A DNA stretch of 51,276 nt from Candidatus Kuenenia stuttgartensis (lineage in GTDB: Bacteria > Planctomycetota > Planctomycetia > Pirellulales > UBA1268), in NCBI GenBank assembly GCA_945873085.1, contig CAMCCR010000003.1:1-51276 (forward strand), given 5' to 3'. The first letter of the stretch is position 1; the number at the start of each line of letters is the position of its first letter. The position numbers and the translations under genes were made by a program. The notes under the pieces are model-generated. The model made no database searches. It saw only the letters and a list, made by a program, of their open reading frames with translations, and was not told where the DNA came from. Of the stretch, positions 3,601 to 50,957 are shown one piece after another.

Positions 3601-3673
3601 GCTAGCGTAGCTCAATTGGCAGAGTACCTGATTTGTAATCAGGTGGTTGCGGGTTCAACTCCCGCCGCTAGCT
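3601..3673 (+). tRNA. tRNA-Thr(TGT)
   Basis: Cloverleaf: acceptor GCTAGCG/CGCTAGC, anticodon arm CCTGA-TTTGTAA-TCAGG, T-loop TTCAACT. CCA not encoded. Confidence 0.97.
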
Positions 3674-3953
3674 CACTCCATATTCCGGGAGGGAGCGCTC
3701 GTCCGATCGTGGCAGGCGTCGTCCGGAAGCGTTTCAATCCCGTTGCGAACGCAACAGGCAGGAAATGGGCCGGTCGTTGTCTGGGTCGTCGACTCGACGT
3801 ACGTTTTGGGCTCTGCCCGCTTCGGAATGGCTGATTCGGAGCGGAGCCGGATCGAGGAAAATGGTGGCGCCGGTTCGAAAAAAGCGGTGGCGCTCCCGCG
3901 GCAGGTTTTGATTCGGGGAGATTTGGATCCGAACCGATATCACCAACACATGA

Positions 3954-4035
3954 GGGAAGTTTCCCGAGCGGTCAAAGGGGCTTGACTGTAAATCAAGTGG
4001 CTCTGCCTTCGCAGGTTCGAATCCTGCACTTCCCA
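3954..4035 (+). tRNA. tRNA-Tyr(GTA)
   Basis: Acceptor GGGAAGT/ACTTCCC, anticodon arm CTTGA-CTGTAAA-TCAAG, long variable arm, GTTCGAATC. Confidence 0.97.
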
Positions 4036-4052
4036 CTTCCAACCCCATGCCC

Positions 4053-4098
4053 CGATACCGACACTGAACTCGATACCGACACTGAGCCCGATACTGAG
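4053..4098 (+). repeat. Imperfect 18-bp tandem repeat (about 2.5 copies, hexamer-based)
   Basis: CGATACCGACACTGAACT / CGATACCGACACTGAGCC / CGATACTGAG just 3' of tRNA-Tyr. Confidence 0.7.
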
Positions 4099-4302
4099 GT
4101 AGATCGCGGCGATAAGCCGCAAAGGCTAAAAACGAAGCTAGCGACAAAGAAGTCTGTTTGAGCCCGACGTTAGAGCAACGCGTCTCGTTCCGTCCCCCCG
4201 ATTCCTCAGCCCCACCACGAAAAACACCCCAAACGAGCAGGGACCATCCAGCAGAGGCACACGCGGGCAGGCTCGGCTCATCACCGGCCTGCACGAACGC
4301 AT

Positions 4303-4373
4303 GCGGGTGTAGCTCAATGGTAGAGCAATAGCCTTCCAAGCTAAAGACGAGGGTTCGATTCCCTCTACCCGCT
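4303..4373 (+). tRNA. tRNA-Gly(TCC)
   Basis: Acceptor GCGGGTG/TACCCGC, anticodon loop CTTCCAA, T arm GAGGG-TTCGATT-CCCTC. Confidence 0.97.
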
Positions 4374-4540
4374 TTCCAGGCCGCAACTGTTCCTCAACGT
4401 CCTCTCCGCTCAACGACACCCCGACCACACCGTTTCCTTATTTCCACGGAGCGAACGCCGACACGACCGACCGATCCGCGTCCTCGCCGGGACAACGCCG
4501 CGCTCTCAAGCGCTCGTCCACCGAGGCCACGACGCACACC

Positions 4541-4613
<73 letters not shown>

Positions 4614-4833
4614 TCCCAGCGGTCGCCGTGACCACGTCGCCCCACACCCAAGATTCATCCTTCCGGCCTGCCGGAGGGACGCTCGTTACAAGATCGATCG
4701 ATGCTCCGCGTCAGACCTGGCCAGGCGGGGCATCGTCGATCGATCGGATAGTTTGATTTGATGCAGGATTTCAGGGACCAGGGCAGGCGCCGCCTGCAGC
4801 CACACACCAGAGAGGAAGATCGAGGGAGAAAGC

Positions 4834-6033
<1,200 letters not shown>

Positions 6034-6052
6034 TCACAGAACCTGTGTACCG

Positions 6053-6085
6053 TTCCAGGCGCCGGCTTACGGCCGGCGCCTGGAA
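6053..6085 (+). other. Perfect 14-bp hairpin between tuf and tRNA-Trp (probably protects or processes the mRNA 3' end)
   Basis: TTCCAGGCGCCGGC-TTACG-GCCGGCGCCTGGAA with no U-tract. Confidence 0.6.
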
Positions 6086-6089
6086 ACAC

Positions 6090-6162
6090 AGGGGCGTAGC
6101 TCAACTGGCAGAGCGCTGGTCTCCAAAACCAGAGGTTGCGAGTTCGATCCCCGCCGCCCCTG
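6090..6162 (+). tRNA. tRNA-Trp(CCA)
   Basis: Acceptor AGGGGCG/CGCCCCT, anticodon arm CTGGT-CTCCAAA-ACCAG, one A:C mismatch in the T stem. Canonical position before secE. Confidence 0.95.
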
Positions 6163-6334
6163 CTTCGCGGGATCTGGTCGCCCTGGCCACGTCCTCACGA
6201 GTCTGGATCGACAGCGTCGGTGTTTGGATCGAGGTTGAATAAGGCCGGTTGGGGAATGCCCCACCAGGAAACAGTCGCCCCCACAGACCGGGCTCATCAT
6301 TCAGACGGATCGCCCGAGCCGGACGGAACCGACC

Positions 6335-46066: not shown

Positions 46067-46741
46067 ATGAAGCTCCGTTCCGCCTTGCTGATCGCGTGCC
46101 TGATCGTGGTGCCTCTGCTGGCCATGTTCTCGCACAAAGTCCCGACCGCGACCCGGGCAGCGATCCGGGAACGCTTCTGGGACCCGATGATCAGGCCACT
46201 GGCGTCGGCCCTCGGCTTGGGTGCCACTTCCCCAACCAGCCCCGCCCCCCGGCAAGCCGCCGCCTCTCCGGTGGAGGAAGCCTTCCCGGGCCCACCGAGA
46301 GCGTTTGCCAGCAGCGGATCGGCTTCGACCGATATCGGGCCAGCGGCGGCCGATCCCCTCCAGCCTCTCCAAGCAACTCGGGCGACGGGCCTGCGCGAGC
46401 CCGATACGGCCATCGCTGGCAACACCCCGCCGCCGGCGATCCTCCTCGGCTCGGACGACTCGCTGCCGATCGGCGGGGCGACGGGCCGGGAATCGCTCGA
46501 GGCCCGCCTCCGGGCCCTCGGGGCCACAAGGATCGACTGGACACCGGGTCAGGGGGGCGACGGTCTCCATCGCTGCAGCTGCCGCATTCCCGCTGAACCT
46601 TCGGGTCAGCTTCACCGCATCTTCCAGGCAGCCGCCACCGACCCAGTGGCCGCGCTCGACAATCTCGTTGGCCAGGTCACGGCTTGGTCGATGCGGAGCG
46701 GGGGCACCGCAGCGAGCCCGGCGATGCCCCTGCAGCGCTGA
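46067..46741 (+). CDS. Hypothetical membrane-anchored protein with Pro/Ala linker and small C-terminal domain
   Basis: N-terminal TM LLIACLIVVPLLAMF; low-complexity linker; globular C-terminus. Confidence 0.7.
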   Translation: MKLRSALLIACLIVVPLLAMFSHKVPTATRAAIRERFWDPMIRPLASALGLGATSPTSPAPRQAAASPVEEAFPGPPRAFASSGSASTDIGPAAADPLQPLQATRATGLREPDTAIAGNTPPPAILLGSDDSLPIGGATGRESLEARLRALGATRIDWTPGQGGDGLHRCSCRIPAEPSGQLHRIFQAAATDPVAALDNLVGQVTAWSMRSGGTAASPAMPLQR

Positions 46742-46758
46742 TCGGGGGAGATCTCGCC

Positions 46759-47529
46759 ATGCTGCTCCAACGTCGGGCTTCGAATCGACTCCCCGACCTT
46801 TTCCAACGCCGAGCGGCATCCGGCCGGGGGCCTCGGCCCTGCCTCGCCCCCATCCGAAGGCAGCGTCTACTGACGACTCCCACCAGGCCCCCCGTGGGGC
46901 TGGCAGAGGCCGAACCGGGGCCTCACGCCCGTTCGGAGGAGCTGGCCCGTCTGGAGGCGGCCTTGTTCATCGCCCGCGAGCCGCTCTCCACACGACGGCT
47001 GGCAAAAATCGCCCGGCTCTCCGACGGCACCCGTGCCCGGGCACTCCTCCGGGAACTGGCTGCCGTTCAGGACGCCAGCGGCAGCGCCATCCGGGTCGAG
47101 CCGATCGCCGGCGGCTTCCAACTCCTCACCCGCTCACCGTTCGGCCCGTGGGTCCGCAGACTCCTGACGACACCGGCGGAAAACCGGCTGTCGGCGGCGG
47201 CACTCGAGACGCTGGCGATCGTGGCCTACCGTCAGCCGGTGACCCGGGCGGAAATCGAAGCCATTCGCGGGGTCGGGTGCGAGGAGATGCTGCGTCAACT
47301 CATGGAAAGGGATCTGGTCGCGGTCGGAGGGAGGAGCGAGGAACTTGGTCGTCCCAACGTCTACCAGACCACGAAGCGATTTCTGCGGGCCTTTGGGCTG
47401 TCCCGCATCGAGGATCTGCCCGACATTGGCCCGGTCACGACGCTCGACCCGACCGTCTCCCCTAACCCCGGCGGTCAGGAGCCCCCCGGCCCACCGGCAC
47501 CCGGCTCCCCCTCGTCCGAGCGCTCTTGA
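46759..47529 (+). CDS. scpB: SMC-Scp complex subunit ScpB
   Basis: LEAALFI, IAGGFQLLT, LSAAALETLAIVAYRQPVTRAEIEAIRGV, GRPNVYQTTKRFLRAFGL. Confidence 0.95.
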   Translation: MLLQRRASNRLPDLFQRRAASGRGPRPCLAPIRRQRLLTTPTRPPVGLAEAEPGPHARSEELARLEAALFIAREPLSTRRLAKIARLSDGTRARALLRELAAVQDASGSAIRVEPIAGGFQLLTRSPFGPWVRRLLTTPAENRLSAAALETLAIVAYRQPVTRAEIEAIRGVGCEEMLRQLMERDLVAVGGRSEELGRPNVYQTTKRFLRAFGLSRIEDLPDIGPVTTLDPTVSPNPGGQEPPGPPAPGSPSSERS

Positions 47530-47555
47530 GCAATTTTTCATGCCCCTCGCCCCGC

Positions 47556-47584
47556 TTGCACTCCATCGAACCTGCGGCGACACT
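47556..47584 (+). promoter_or_regulatory. Putative sigma70 promoter
   Basis: TTGCAC-N17-GACACT, similar to the promoter upstream of the tRNA operon. Confidence 0.45.
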
Positions 47585-47900
47585 TTCCCGGTCCCGCGAC
47601 CGTGCTTCGGAAGCCCAGCCGTCCCCGGTTCACGAATTTTTTTCCGAAGGTTGGATGATTCCGCACGATCGGGTACAGAATTGTGCGAAGGAATCTGCCG
47701 ATACTCGGACGACTGCCCGGCAACATGCCCGATCCAACGCTTCTCACGGCGGGAAGCCCATCCGGGAATCATCGACGATTCACACCAACGGATACGCAGC
47801 GATGATGGCATCAACACCGACAACTCAACGTGGATCGTTATCGTCTGACCGTTCACCGTCCGTCGCAGGGCCTGTGAACAGACTCGAGGGAGGTTTTTCA

Positions 47901-48326
47901 GTGACCAGCGTTGCGAGCCCCAGGGGATCCCGAAGCGTGTTGAACTCCGACGTGTTTTGCTGGGATGAACTTCCCGATTTGCTCGCCGCCGAGGAGCTCT
48001 TCGAGATTGCCGGCAACCGCAACTCGACGTCGCCGATCGTCGGCAAGCAGGATGACGACGAGGACGATGACGACCTCGAGGATGACGACGACGATGATGA
48101 CGATGACGAGGAAGAAGACGATCTCGAGGACGACGACTGGGAAGAGGTTGAGGACGAGGACGAAGAAGAGGACGACGAAGAAGAGGAAGAGGACGAGGAA
48201 GAAGACGACGAAGAGGATGAAGAAGAAGGGGACGATGACGAGGAGTGGGAAGACGACGACGAAGAGTGGGATGACGAGGACGAAGAGGACGAAGACGAAG
48301 ACGAGGAAGAAGACGACGACGACTGA
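47901..48326 (+). CDS. Hyper-acidic protein (141 aa; last 91 aa are 84 Asp/Glu)
   Basis: Strong SD GAGGGAGG before GTG 47901; mixed GAC/GAT/GAA/GAG codons; intrinsic terminator downstream. Confidence 0.75.
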   Translation: MTSVASPRGSRSVLNSDVFCWDELPDLLAAEELFEIAGNRNSTSPIVGKQDDDEDDDDLEDDDDDDDDDEEEDDLEDDDWEEVEDEDEEEDDEEEEEDEEEDDEEDEEEGDDDEEWEDDDEEWDDEDEEDEDEDEEEDDDD

Positions 48327-48392
48327 CTTCCGCCACGCCTGATTCCGCCGTCATCCGCTCAAATATCGCGCGGTATCGCCGCCACAGCATTC

Positions 48393-48437
48393 AAGCGACC
48401 CTGGAGACGCTCAGCGTGTCTCCGGGGTCGCTTTTTT
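48393..48437 (+). terminator. Rho-independent terminator
   Basis: AAGCGACCCTGGAGACGC / GTGTCTCCGGGGTCGCTT stem running into a T6 tract. Confidence 0.85.
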
Positions 48438-48554
48438 AATATTCTGGCGGAAGCGGGTACGGCTAAGGGCTGCGGCCACGGGCTGTCGTCGGGCCGGCCT
48501 CAAACCGGAGTAGGCCCCGTCATTTCGTGGCCTTTCTTCCCATCGGCCGCAACC

Positions 48555-49904
48555 TCATGGCACCCGAGCCGGTTCGGTGCCAGCCGCGGGTGCCGCGGGC
48601 CCCTCATCCCCCGTCGACGCAGGTGTCTCCCCGCTGACAACCTGGACCTCGAGGATTCGCCCGGCGCGGTCGATCTGCAGCGTCAGGGCATCGCTTGCCG
48701 ACGCCATCCGCTGGAGCATCGTTGCCTGCGTGGCGAACGGCTCTCCATCGATGGCGATGATCCGGTCACCACAGCGCAGGCCGGCACGCTCGAGGGGGGA
48801 TTCAGGCACGACACGAACGACGATCGGTGCCGACGGATCGCCGGCATCGGACCGGGTGCTCATGCCCCACCGCACGCGCTGCTCCACTGGCGCCGCCGGG
48901 AGAACGCGTTCGAGCGCGTCACGGTGGGCATTCTTCTCCCGGCGACTGGCGTCACGGAAGCCGGCCAGCGTCCCCGGCCGGTCAGCCACGGCCATCACCA
49001 CACCCATGGCCAGCCGCGCCACCGTCTCGACCCCCGCGGTGTTCACCAGTTGCACATCGTCACTGGGGCGGTGGTACTCGTCATGGAGCCCGGTGTGGAG
49101 CATGACGGTGGGCACGCGGGATTCGATGAACGGGAAGTGGTCGGAATCGTCGACGATGTCCCAGTCGAAGATGAGTTCCAGCCCCGCCTCCCGATTCGTC
49201 TCGGTGAGAATCCTCCGCAGGCCGGTCATGGTTCTGCCGCCGTAGATCTCGACACGCTCGCCGCGAAGCCGGCCGATCATATCGAGGTTGACCACGAACA
49301 CCGGCCGCAGGTCACGGAGTGGCTGAGGACGGACACGGACGAAGTGCCACGAGCCGAGCAGTCCCTTCTCCTCCCCGTCCCAGAAGGCGAGGAGCACCGG
49401 CCGCCGCGGCTTGGCAGGCATCGCCTGAAGCACCTCGGCGATCTCGAGCACCCCGGCGACCCCCGAAGCGTTGTCGTCGGCGCCGTTGTGGATCAGTCCC
49501 GTCGGGCCGTAGCTGTTGGCGGCCGTGCCGTAGCCGACGTGATCGTAATGGGCCCCCACGACGACCAACTCCCGTGCGCAGGCTGGGTCGCTGCCCGGCA
49601 CCAGGGCGAGGATGTTCCGCATCGTCCCGAACCGCTGGTAGTAGGTTCCCTCGTCCCCGGCCGGCCGGAGGCCGGCGTTGCGGAGCGTCTCGACGATGTA
49701 GGCGCCGGCGGCCCGCCCTCCTCGGCTCCCCCCCTCGCGTCCCTCGAGGGCGTCATCGGCGAGGGCGGCCACATGACGGCCGGCCCCCGCGGCGTCGATC
49801 ACCGACACCGCTTCCGCAGCGTGGCCCCGTTCCCCTCCGAGCAGGCCAGCCGACAGAATGAACCATCCCAAGGCAATCGCCGGGAAAACCGTCCGCACGT
49901 CCAT
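48555..49904 (-). CDS. M28 family metallopeptidase with C-terminal PDZ domain
   Basis: Signal peptide, GAHYDH, GADDNASG, GEEKGLLGS, NLDMIG, SDH, YHRPSD, PDZ SPLERAGLRCGDRIIAIDG. Confidence 0.92.
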   Translation of the reverse strand: MDVRTVFPAIALGWFILSAGLLGGERGHAAEAVSVIDAAGAGRHVAALADDALEGREGGSRGGRAAGAYIVETLRNAGLRPAGDEGTYYQRFGTMRNILALVPGSDPACARELVVVGAHYDHVGYGTAANSYGPTGLIHNGADDNASGVAGVLEIAEVLQAMPAKPRRPVLLAFWDGEEKGLLGSWHFVRVRPQPLRDLRPVFVVNLDMIGRLRGERVEIYGGRTMTGLRRILTETNREAGLELIFDWDIVDDSDHFPFIESRVPTVMLHTGLHDEYHRPSDDVQLVNTAGVETVARLAMGVVMAVADRPGTLAGFRDASRREKNAHRDALERVLPAAPVEQRVRWGMSTRSDAGDPSAPIVVRVVPESPLERAGLRCGDRIIAIDGEPFATQATMLQRMASASDALTLQIDRAGRILEVQVVSGETPASTGDEGPAAPAAGTEPARVP

Positions 49905-50090
49905 GATCCAGGCACTCCGAATGACCGCCCCGGCCCCCTTCGACAACACCCCCCACACGGGAGGGGTTTCGGAGGAACGCCCCGCGACCCACAATGGCCC
50001 CTCCAGTGGACTTCGCTCCCAGAGCGACGGCAAGGTGAGTCCGGTGATCATCCGGGCATCCTGGCCGGGCTCTTCGCGGTCCTTGGGTGA

Positions 50091-50180
50091 GGAGAGGTGG
50101 CAGAGCGGTCGAATGCGCGTCTTTGCTAAAGACGTGTCCGGTCAAAAGCTGGACCGCGGGTTCGAATCCCGCCCTCTCCG
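50091..50180 (+). tRNA. tRNA-Ser(GCT)
   Basis: Acceptor GGAGAGG/CCTCTCC + G73, anticodon arm CGTCT-TTGCTAA-AGACG, long variable arm, GTTCGAATC. Confidence 0.96.
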
Positions 50181-50957
50181 TTTGGTGAAGAACGTCGAAG
50201 CGAATATGCCCTGTTTCCAGGGCTTCTTGAAAAGCGAGTCATTGTTGACCTCCGTGACTTTGCTGATCAACCACCAGCCCCGCGACCGCCGCGGGGTGAC
50301 TTTGCTGAAACTTTGCTGATGCCCCGCCGCCCCCGGGCGGGTTTGGCGGCACGCCTGGCGGCTCTCGGCCAACTGCTGTTTGGTCACCTGGGCCTCTTTG
50401 TCCGCGATGTGGACGTAATTTTTGAGCGCCTCCTCGTCGATGTGGCCGCCCCAGCGACGGAGGGTGAAAAAGTTCACCCCGCTGAGGACGGCGATCGTGC
50501 AGAAGGAGTGCCGGAACTTGTGGTTGGTGTCCTCGAGGCCGAGCTTCGCGAGCACGGTCGTAAGATAGGCCAGGATGTGGCGGTCGTTGGCGGGCTGGTT
50601 CGCGGTGGCGGCGGTGCCGTTCATCCGGTCGATCACCCATCGGCGGCGGCGGGGTAGGCCCCGAAGCATGGCGACGGCTCGGGGCGAGAGCGGCACGGCC
50701 CGCTGCTCGCCGTTCTTGGGCCCCCAGGGCCGGGCACCGGGCACAACCTCCTTCGGCCGGATATGGACGACGGGCGTTGGCCCGTCCAGGGTCAGATCGT
50801 CGTGCGTCAGGTGGACGACCTCGCCGATCCGCATGCCGGTCTCGGCCATCAGCAGGAACGCGGCCTTGTAGGGGCCCCTGGCTGCCTCCACGATCGCGTC
50901 GAGCTGCGCAAGCGTGGCGAGAGTCCCGCCCAGAAACGGCAGGGCCCAGGCCGACAC
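50142..50957 (-). pseudogene. Tyrosine recombinase/integrase, catalytic domain only (N-terminally truncated)
   Basis: TGMRIGE (R), PKNG (K), HKFRH, GH, NYVH (Y). No core-binding domain; the frame is closed by TGA at 51084-51086 with no upstream start. Confidence 0.75.
50254..50319. repeat. Three direct copies of ACTTTGCTGA (putative integrase arm-type sites)
   Basis: 50257-50266, 50299-50308, 50310-50319; the first two extend to GTGACTTTGCTGA. Confidence 0.7.

Follow-up and report, generated by a model that had tools for sequence, protein, structure and literature searches.

The window analyzed here, meaning the whole stretch of 51,276 nucleotides, contains a gene for a 141-aa hyperacidic protein that lies downstream of scpB and is followed by a convergent gene for an M28-PDZ peptidase (48555-50051), as summarized in Table 1. 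The reading frame and its extreme composition had been proposed in an initial annotation made from the letters alone, and the same coordinates and residue counts were recovered exactly. The upstream gene encodes a genuine ScpB, scoring 175.8 bits with PF04079 and 119.3 bits with the equivalog model TIGR00281 (cut-off 89.2). Directly upstream of scpB, throughout the family to which the window belongs, there is also a gene for a 224-aa protein (46067-46741 on the forward strand) with a hydrophobic segment at its N-terminal end and no match in Pfam; the gene overlaps the long 5′ open frame of scpB and is detectable upstream in several other families, and its product matched unnamed Planctomycetota clusters in the ESM Atlas. 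Further along the window, a tRNA-Ser(gct) gene (50091-50180, forward strand) overlaps the 3′ end of a tyrosine-recombinase (phage integrase) ORF (50142-50957, reverse strand), which is probably a tRNA-linked integration site, and integrase fragments follow the M28 peptidase at loci L019, L038, L044, L060, L062 and L064. Five tRNA genes (Thr, Tyr, Gly, Thr and Trp) are clustered at 3601-6163.

Table 1. Features at the scpB-hyperacidic gene locus of the window. A1, full-length protein alignment (n=21); A2, alignment of heads (n=44).
Feature	Position	Strand	Remarks
ScpB, winged-helix core (exact start codon uncertain)	46948..47529	+	Core from 46948; stop at 47527-47529
Promoter-like element TTGGAT-17 nt-TACAGA	47651..47679	+	T-run just upstream; from alignment of upstream regions
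Shine-Dalgarno motif GGAGG	47889..47893	+	7 nt 5′ of the GTG
CDS of the 141-aa hyperacidic protein	47901..48326	+	GTG start, TGA stop; start conserved in 21 and 45 loci
Head, 50 aa	47901..48050	+	Holds FCWDELPDLLAAEELFEI; alignments A1, A2
Helical part of the conserved amphipathic head motif	47961-48005	+	Residues 21-35 predicted helical; A1, A2, AlphaFold2
Asp/Glu tract, 91 aa	48051..48323	+	84 of 91 residues Asp/Glu; predicted disordered
WEEV island, residues 80-83	48138..48149	+	Invariant in A1; most conserved feature of the module order-wide
W-acidic-W island WEDDDEEW, residues 116-123	48246..48269	+	In A1, W116 and D118 invariant, W123 at least 90%
Intrinsic-terminator-like hairpin	48393..48433	+	18 pairs, 11 of them G-C; T-run after

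The tract is made up of 45 Asp, 39 Glu, 3 Trp, 2 Leu, 1 Val and 1 Gly, with neither Lys, Arg nor His, and has a net charge of about -87. The 3.63-Mb assembly has no second hyperacidic ORF: the best 40 residues of this one include 37 Asp/Glu, compared with 24 of 40 in the runner-up. AlphaFold2 modeling of the 141-aa protein returned a mean pLDDT of 57 and a pTM of 0.17, with helices at residues 21-29 and 31-35 and little else, and the head carries neither a signal peptide nor a membrane anchor. The protein is an intrinsically disordered polyanion with three conserved islands of hydrophobic or aromatic residues, these being the head helix, WEEV and the W-acidic-W segment. With carboxylate side chains on 84 of 91 residues, such a protein might be taken to bind or store divalent cations (Mg2+ or Ca2+) in the manner of calsequestrin, unrelated to condensin. 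We find this very unlikely, as the protein is small and the sole ORF of its kind in the genome, its head has no signal peptide or membrane anchor, and the order-wide fusion to ScpB described below would not be expected of a general ion buffer.

The claim that the gene has its own Shine-Dalgarno motif and terminator held, with GGAGG 7 nt from the GTG and an 18-pair hairpin followed by a T-run, and related loci have a GGAG-type motif 7-9 nt upstream of the start. The promoter-like element was kept across genera of the family at varying distance to the start codon, and we infer from this sequence pattern that it may serve as a promoter. No consensus structure emerged when RNAalifold was applied to 24 loci over the 83 nt that precede the start, and a GTTCAC/GTGAAC hairpin seen by eye in close relatives was dropped. 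An Rfam search over 47400-48560 returned snoRNA/miRNA noise alone, all of it sub-threshold with E values of at least 0.25. Several competing reading frames were rejected. One of them, a 266-aa ORF starting from TTG at 47526, was judged from a search using a query consisting of the head plus 34 upstream codons; matches in distant relatives began at query residues 28-34, which is the Shine-Dalgarno/GTG region and thus favors the short ORF. The part of the 266-aa ORF upstream of the GTG is conserved as nucleotides regardless of frame, and its Pfam match to Mpp10, at 18.6 bits, falls below the cut-off of 29.9 and is an artefact of low complexity. An ORF on the opposite strand (47134-48390) and another in the +2 frame (47965-48342) are by-products of the GA-rich tract.

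When 41 related genomes were searched with that same query, the window's family was represented by 25 genomes, of which 22 gave a head match at E ≤ 4e-5; the 16 genomes from other families of the order gave none. In one of the remaining family genomes (G017) the gene follows scpB with a divergent head and an intact WEEV, and in the other two (G003 and G010) the contigs stop 21 and 347 nt past scpB, before the gene could start. This confirmed, at the level of sequence, that all assessable genomes of the family carry the hyperacidic gene. A head match in genome G025 (E 0.002, locus L024) was spurious, having neither ScpB nor an acidic tract nearby. The ORF begins at the same GTG, preceded by a GGAG-type Shine-Dalgarno motif, in all 21 loci that were fetched, and the same start and motif were found in 45 loci of species-representative MAGs, a set that largely overlaps the first and belongs to Planctomycetota/Pirellulales except for a few evident mislabels. 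Three of the 45 are imperfect: L043 is N-masked, L067 is truncated where its contig ends, and the C-terminus of L056 is aberrant. In the last of these (L056:3959-4678), a Lys/Pro-rich sequence and a hydrophobic segment replace the acidic tract after WEEV, which may reflect a frameshift, a misassembly or a real variant.

Alignment of the full-length proteins (A1) revealed F19, W21, E23, L24, L27, L33, F34, W80-E81-E82-V83, W116 and D118 to be invariant, and among the 44 heads (A2) F19, W21, L27 and L33 were invariant with E23, L24, P25, A30 and F34 at 90% or above. Between these fixed positions the length of the tract and the order of its Asp and Glu residues vary freely, with indels that keep the frame. 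That the islands are fixed while tract length and Asp/Glu order vary argues for selection on the protein rather than for slippage. Within the tract of the window, Asp and Glu are encoded by four codons (GAC 35, GAT 10, GAA 21 and GAG 18), and Tandem Repeats Finder found imperfect arrays only, with 67-72% matches, so that the tract is not a clean microsatellite. The initial reading of protein-level selection rather than a microsatellite was supported. Over the wider order WEEV is present in 92 of 97 modules, namely 43 of 44 from the family and 49 of 53 from other Pirellulales, with W.EV in 2 more, and a W-(D/E)2-8-W segment is found in the C-terminal half of 37 of 44 family loci and 20 of 53 others; tract length across modules ranges from 74 to 149 aa. 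The window protein contains all of the V-T/K-I/S start region, the amphipathic W/L-x-E-L helix and the tract, and outside the family the start region and helix are recognizable though looser.

The tract could also be followed in DNA and RNA sequencing runs. At least 0.80 of the sampled words of 47530-48460 were present in 14 DNA runs from 10 studies, and the tract is thus reproducibly assembled and not an assembly accident. Six metatranscriptome runs contained 0.26-0.49 of the sampled words, and contig cover was examined in four of these, one for each of four studies, counting contigs with 0-1 other letters. The leader and head were covered in all four (47766-48013, 47843-48137, 47847-48094 and 47881-48058) and the 3′ end in three (48245-48349, 48245-48379 and 48245-48289). 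These RNA-library contigs are consistent with transcription of the gene, without being proof of it; the cover included none over scpB (46600-47735) or past 48379, gaps that carry no weight in either direction. Short RNA pieces of high depth within the tract were discarded, being only 90-95% alike and coming from GA repeats of other organisms. A GA-rich low-complexity expansion that is open merely by chance could be suspected from the repetitive nature of the region and from the high G+C content, which leaves many frames open. Such a non-coding origin is exceedingly improbable, considering that different genera and families share the start, the Shine-Dalgarno motif, the head motif and the Trp islands, that Trp, Val and Leu stay fixed while Asp and Glu swap, that indels keep the frame and that RNA-library contigs from four studies cover the gene.

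Database searches gave no named family for the protein. Neither Pfam (E ≤ 0.01) nor NCBIfam returned a family, a word-indexed search matched 5 unnamed proteins, and the ESM Atlas held unnamed Planctomycetota clusters only. A profile built from the 44 heads and run against 1.84 billion representative proteins yielded 40 matches at E ≤ 0.001, of which 38 were retained; the two weakest were set aside, P0043 being a WD40 repeat protein on inspection and P0044, with 11 short matched stretches, being counted likewise as WD40-type. All 13 of the 38 that were inspected consisted of a head and an acidic tail of Planctomycetota type, with no other fused domain apart from mis-called starts. Searching PDB sequences with the head profile gave no solved chain below E = 0.16. 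Long Asp/Glu tracts are otherwise known from the RNAP delta subunit (RpoE) of Firmicutes, prothymosin-alpha and nucleoplasmin, polyanions that act on nucleic-acid-binding machinery. The initial annotation had listed these as analogies, and taken as family membership they failed: at E ≤ 0.01 the 141-aa protein had no Pfam match to the N-terminal HARE-HTH domain of RpoE or to a prothymosin or nucleoplasmin signature, and the inspected profile matches were all of the Planctomycetota-type head-plus-tail kind. These proteins come from other taxa than the module, and we know of none that has been linked to SMC complexes.

The position next to scpB was more informative. An scpB gene lies upstream of the hyperacidic gene at 21 of 21 loci and at 43 of 45 in the overlapping second set, the other two lacking upstream DNA, so the proposed synteny with scpB was borne out. 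Within the window's family the order of the surrounding five genes is also kept, and adjacency there consequently proves little; the argument rests instead on fusions. An ScpB ortholog was found in all 61 sampled Pirellulales genomes, representing 30 families, and 58 of the scpB loci were examined, one per genome, with the other three genomes giving partial or paralog-level matches. A Trp-punctuated hyperacidic tract follows the ScpB winged-helix core at 57 of these 58 loci, and at the last (L138) the contig ends 203 nt past the core, as an acidic run begins. At 28 of the 57 loci the two are fused, with the ScpB frame being free of stops to the end of the tract, and ScpB must there carry the module; counted from the start of the core, 26 of these ORFs run to completion over 274-334 aa, and two leave the contig inside the tract. 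At the remaining 29 loci, four of them from the window's family, the two are split, either with the tract in another frame (18 loci) or in the same frame behind 1-4 stops (11 loci). A single in-frame stop separates them in L071, L073, L125, L136 and L144 (TGA in three and TAG in two), which could represent recent fission, sequencing error or stop-codon read-through. Both states occur within families f9, f19, f24 and f28, and genus g36 is itself mixed, with L146 fused and L144 having one TGA, which indicates repeated fusion or fission. ScpB was the only protein found fused to the module.

By these comparisons of gene structure, the gene in the window was shown to be a separately encoded form of a Pirellulales-wide ScpB module. 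The link to scpB, initially guessed from adjacency, is hence stronger than had been supposed, and the description of the protein as stand-alone is correct for the window genome but not for the module generally. The 141-aa protein (P0001) has no tandem winged-helix ScpB domain by Pfam or NCBIfam; it is not itself a ScpB but a tail or partner of one. Neither of the two ScpB models spans the tail, with TIGR00281 covering residues 3-161 of one 323-aa fused protein, and no description of an acidic ScpB tail was found in the literature searched, subscription-only papers lying outside its coverage. The module probably represents an accessory component of bacterial condensin that has so far escaped description. 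Within the window's family the gene has come to lie about 370 bp away from scpB and has gained a promoter-like element and a terminator of its own, so that co-expression with scpB is not implied; the promoter-like element at this distance from scpB suggests independent control of dosage. Many of the fused ORFs keep the V-T/K-I region and have an EE-S/T-x peptide before it, corresponding to GAGGAG, a pattern that would fit an internal ribosome-binding site and start having been retained inside the fused frame. Genomes with a fused gene may thereby produce both an ScpB-tail protein and a free tail, through internal initiation.

Outside the order the tract was not seen. None of 20 ScpB loci from other Planctomycetota had a hyperacidic tract, these being taken from 81 phylum-wide ScpB matches and including four from the same class and one locus with about 320 nt of downstream DNA. 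Judged from the genomes searched, the module thus appears as a feature of Pirellulales. The ScpB proteins of the same class outside the order have short and mildly acidic C-terminal tails, and the module probably grew from such an acidic ScpB C-terminus. A different kind of ScpB tail is found at L118 and L122 (family f47, outside the order), where the C-terminus of ScpB is prolonged by low-complexity sequence, 255 aa and at least 367 aa long, that is moderately acidic only and lacks WEEV. Most Pirellulales and same-class genomes encode two ScpB paralogs and one ScpA. The divergent second ScpB of the window genome (G000 C16:27795-28271; L102:1123-1998) scores 88.6 bits with PF04079, is about 33% identical to the ScpB of the window, lies directly after an N6_N4 DNA methylase gene and has no acidic tail.

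Smc-ScpAB is the main chromosome-organizing motor of most bacteria, with ScpB as its KITE subunit, and the gating of its DNA loading is under active study. Our preferred reading, in which we have moderate confidence, is that the disordered and detachable polyanionic module works with or on Smc-ScpAB, gating or tuning DNA loading and release. The acidic chain would transiently sit on basic DNA-binding surfaces, either of the ScpB core or of the Smc head/kleisin DNA clamp, and would there compete with DNA. The Trp/Val islands and the head helix would provide specific anchor points, and as a free protein with its own promoter the module could be adjusted in amount separately from ScpB. The mean net charge of the ScpB core is +6.8 in the order (3 to 10, n=57) and +1.4 outside it (-3 to 6, n=20), a contrast that amounts to one lineage, and hence a single evolutionary event, and not to a statistical correlation. 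AlphaFold2 modeling of a fused protein gave a pLDDT of 85-98 for the ScpB core and below 55 for linker and tail, with the tail not docked on the core, a result that is weakly informative for a fuzzy complex.

The same observations bear on a passive role, in which the tail would act as an entropic bristle that neutralizes or solubilizes a basic ScpB core, or limits the stickiness of condensin, with no specific regulatory site. The core is indeed more basic in the order bearing the module, the tail is predicted to be disordered and both its length (74-149 aa) and the order of its acidic residues are free to vary. A pure bristle would not, however, need WEEV in 92 of 97 modules or a conserved head helix and W-acidic-W segment, and its effect would be lost once it is detached from ScpB and given its own promoter, as in the window genome; we therefore regard it as unlikely.

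Another possibility, raised in the initial annotation, is that of a chaperone or sink for basic nucleoid proteins. Eukaryotic acidic histone chaperones bind, buffer or evict basic DNA-binding proteins, and an extremely negative chain with conserved aromatic islands as anchors might do likewise, the tie to ScpB serving only to deliver it to the chromosome by placing the module on DNA-bound condensin. Contigs C21, C42 and C369 of the window genome contain small ORFs whose tails are rich in Lys (12-15 per 40 residues), possibly encoding basic nucleoid proteins as far as their composition tells. No basic partner was however linked to the module through synteny, fusion or co-occurrence, and its only fusion partner is ScpB. 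The chaperone idea thus gained no direct support, is less economical than a role inside Smc-ScpAB, and strikes us as rather improbable.

For a role inside Smc-ScpAB there are partial precedents. According to PMC7617805, T7 gp5.9 is an acidic DNA mimic that occupies the DNA-capture cleft of the MukBEF KITE subunit, MukE, and prevents the loading of DNA. The likeness lies in an acidic protein acting in trans on a KITE subunit, which for the module is our proposal. While gp5.9 is a viral, folded coiled-coil dimer inhibiting both MukBEF and RecBCD, the module is encoded by the host, inherited vertically along with scpB, disordered by prediction and without similarity to solved chains. Classical DNA mimics such as Ocr and gp5.9 are rigid folded proteins, and the rigid fold of that class (Ocr, gp5.9, ArdA) is not seen here, where the mean pLDDT is 57 and only a 15-residue helix is predicted. 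Another precedent is that of disordered acidic tails tethered to a basic core, an arrangement that the module shares in the 28 fused loci and that is untethered in the window genome. In Hfq, the acidic tip of the C-terminal domain imitates nucleic acid, competing with RNA and DNA and auto-regulating the basic core (PMC5606850), and acidic tails of HMG-box proteins, such as HMGB1 or HMG-D, are reported to occlude the DNA-binding faces (PMC4207994). At 91 aa and 92% Asp/Glu, the module by far exceeds these tails in length and acidity; it also differs from them in its head helix and conserved Trp islands, in belonging to an accessory subunit of an SMC complex and in that a separate gene can encode it. 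We rated the module, by analogy, as resembling known acidic auto-regulatory tails and as an undescribed accessory of a known complex; the DNA-mimicking gate action would likewise be an extension of these analogies. Nucleic-acid mimicry, which the initial annotation had also suggested, is accordingly a plausible way in which the module might act.

A bolder version of the condensin role, put forward here as a tentative possibility, is that the Pirellulales condensin has a built-in and genetically detachable DNA-mimic subunit that gates DNA capture from the basic DNA-binding surfaces of ScpB or the Smc head, with lineages switching repeatedly between a tethered form and a titratable one, the latter made from a separate gene with its own promoter as in the window. 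If true, no DNA mimic encoded by the host itself would have been known before to regulate a bacterial SMC complex, and the concept of acidic tails that mimic nucleic acid, familiar from Hfq and HMGB, would be carried over to condensin. On the practical side, about 38 clusters now labeled 'hypothetical protein', as well as the long 'ScpB' ORFs of Pirellulales, could be given consistent names. Cultured Pirellulales exist, making the idea testable, and the natural occurrence of tethered and free forms within the order offers ready comparisons for tail-mediated auto-regulation of an SMC complex.
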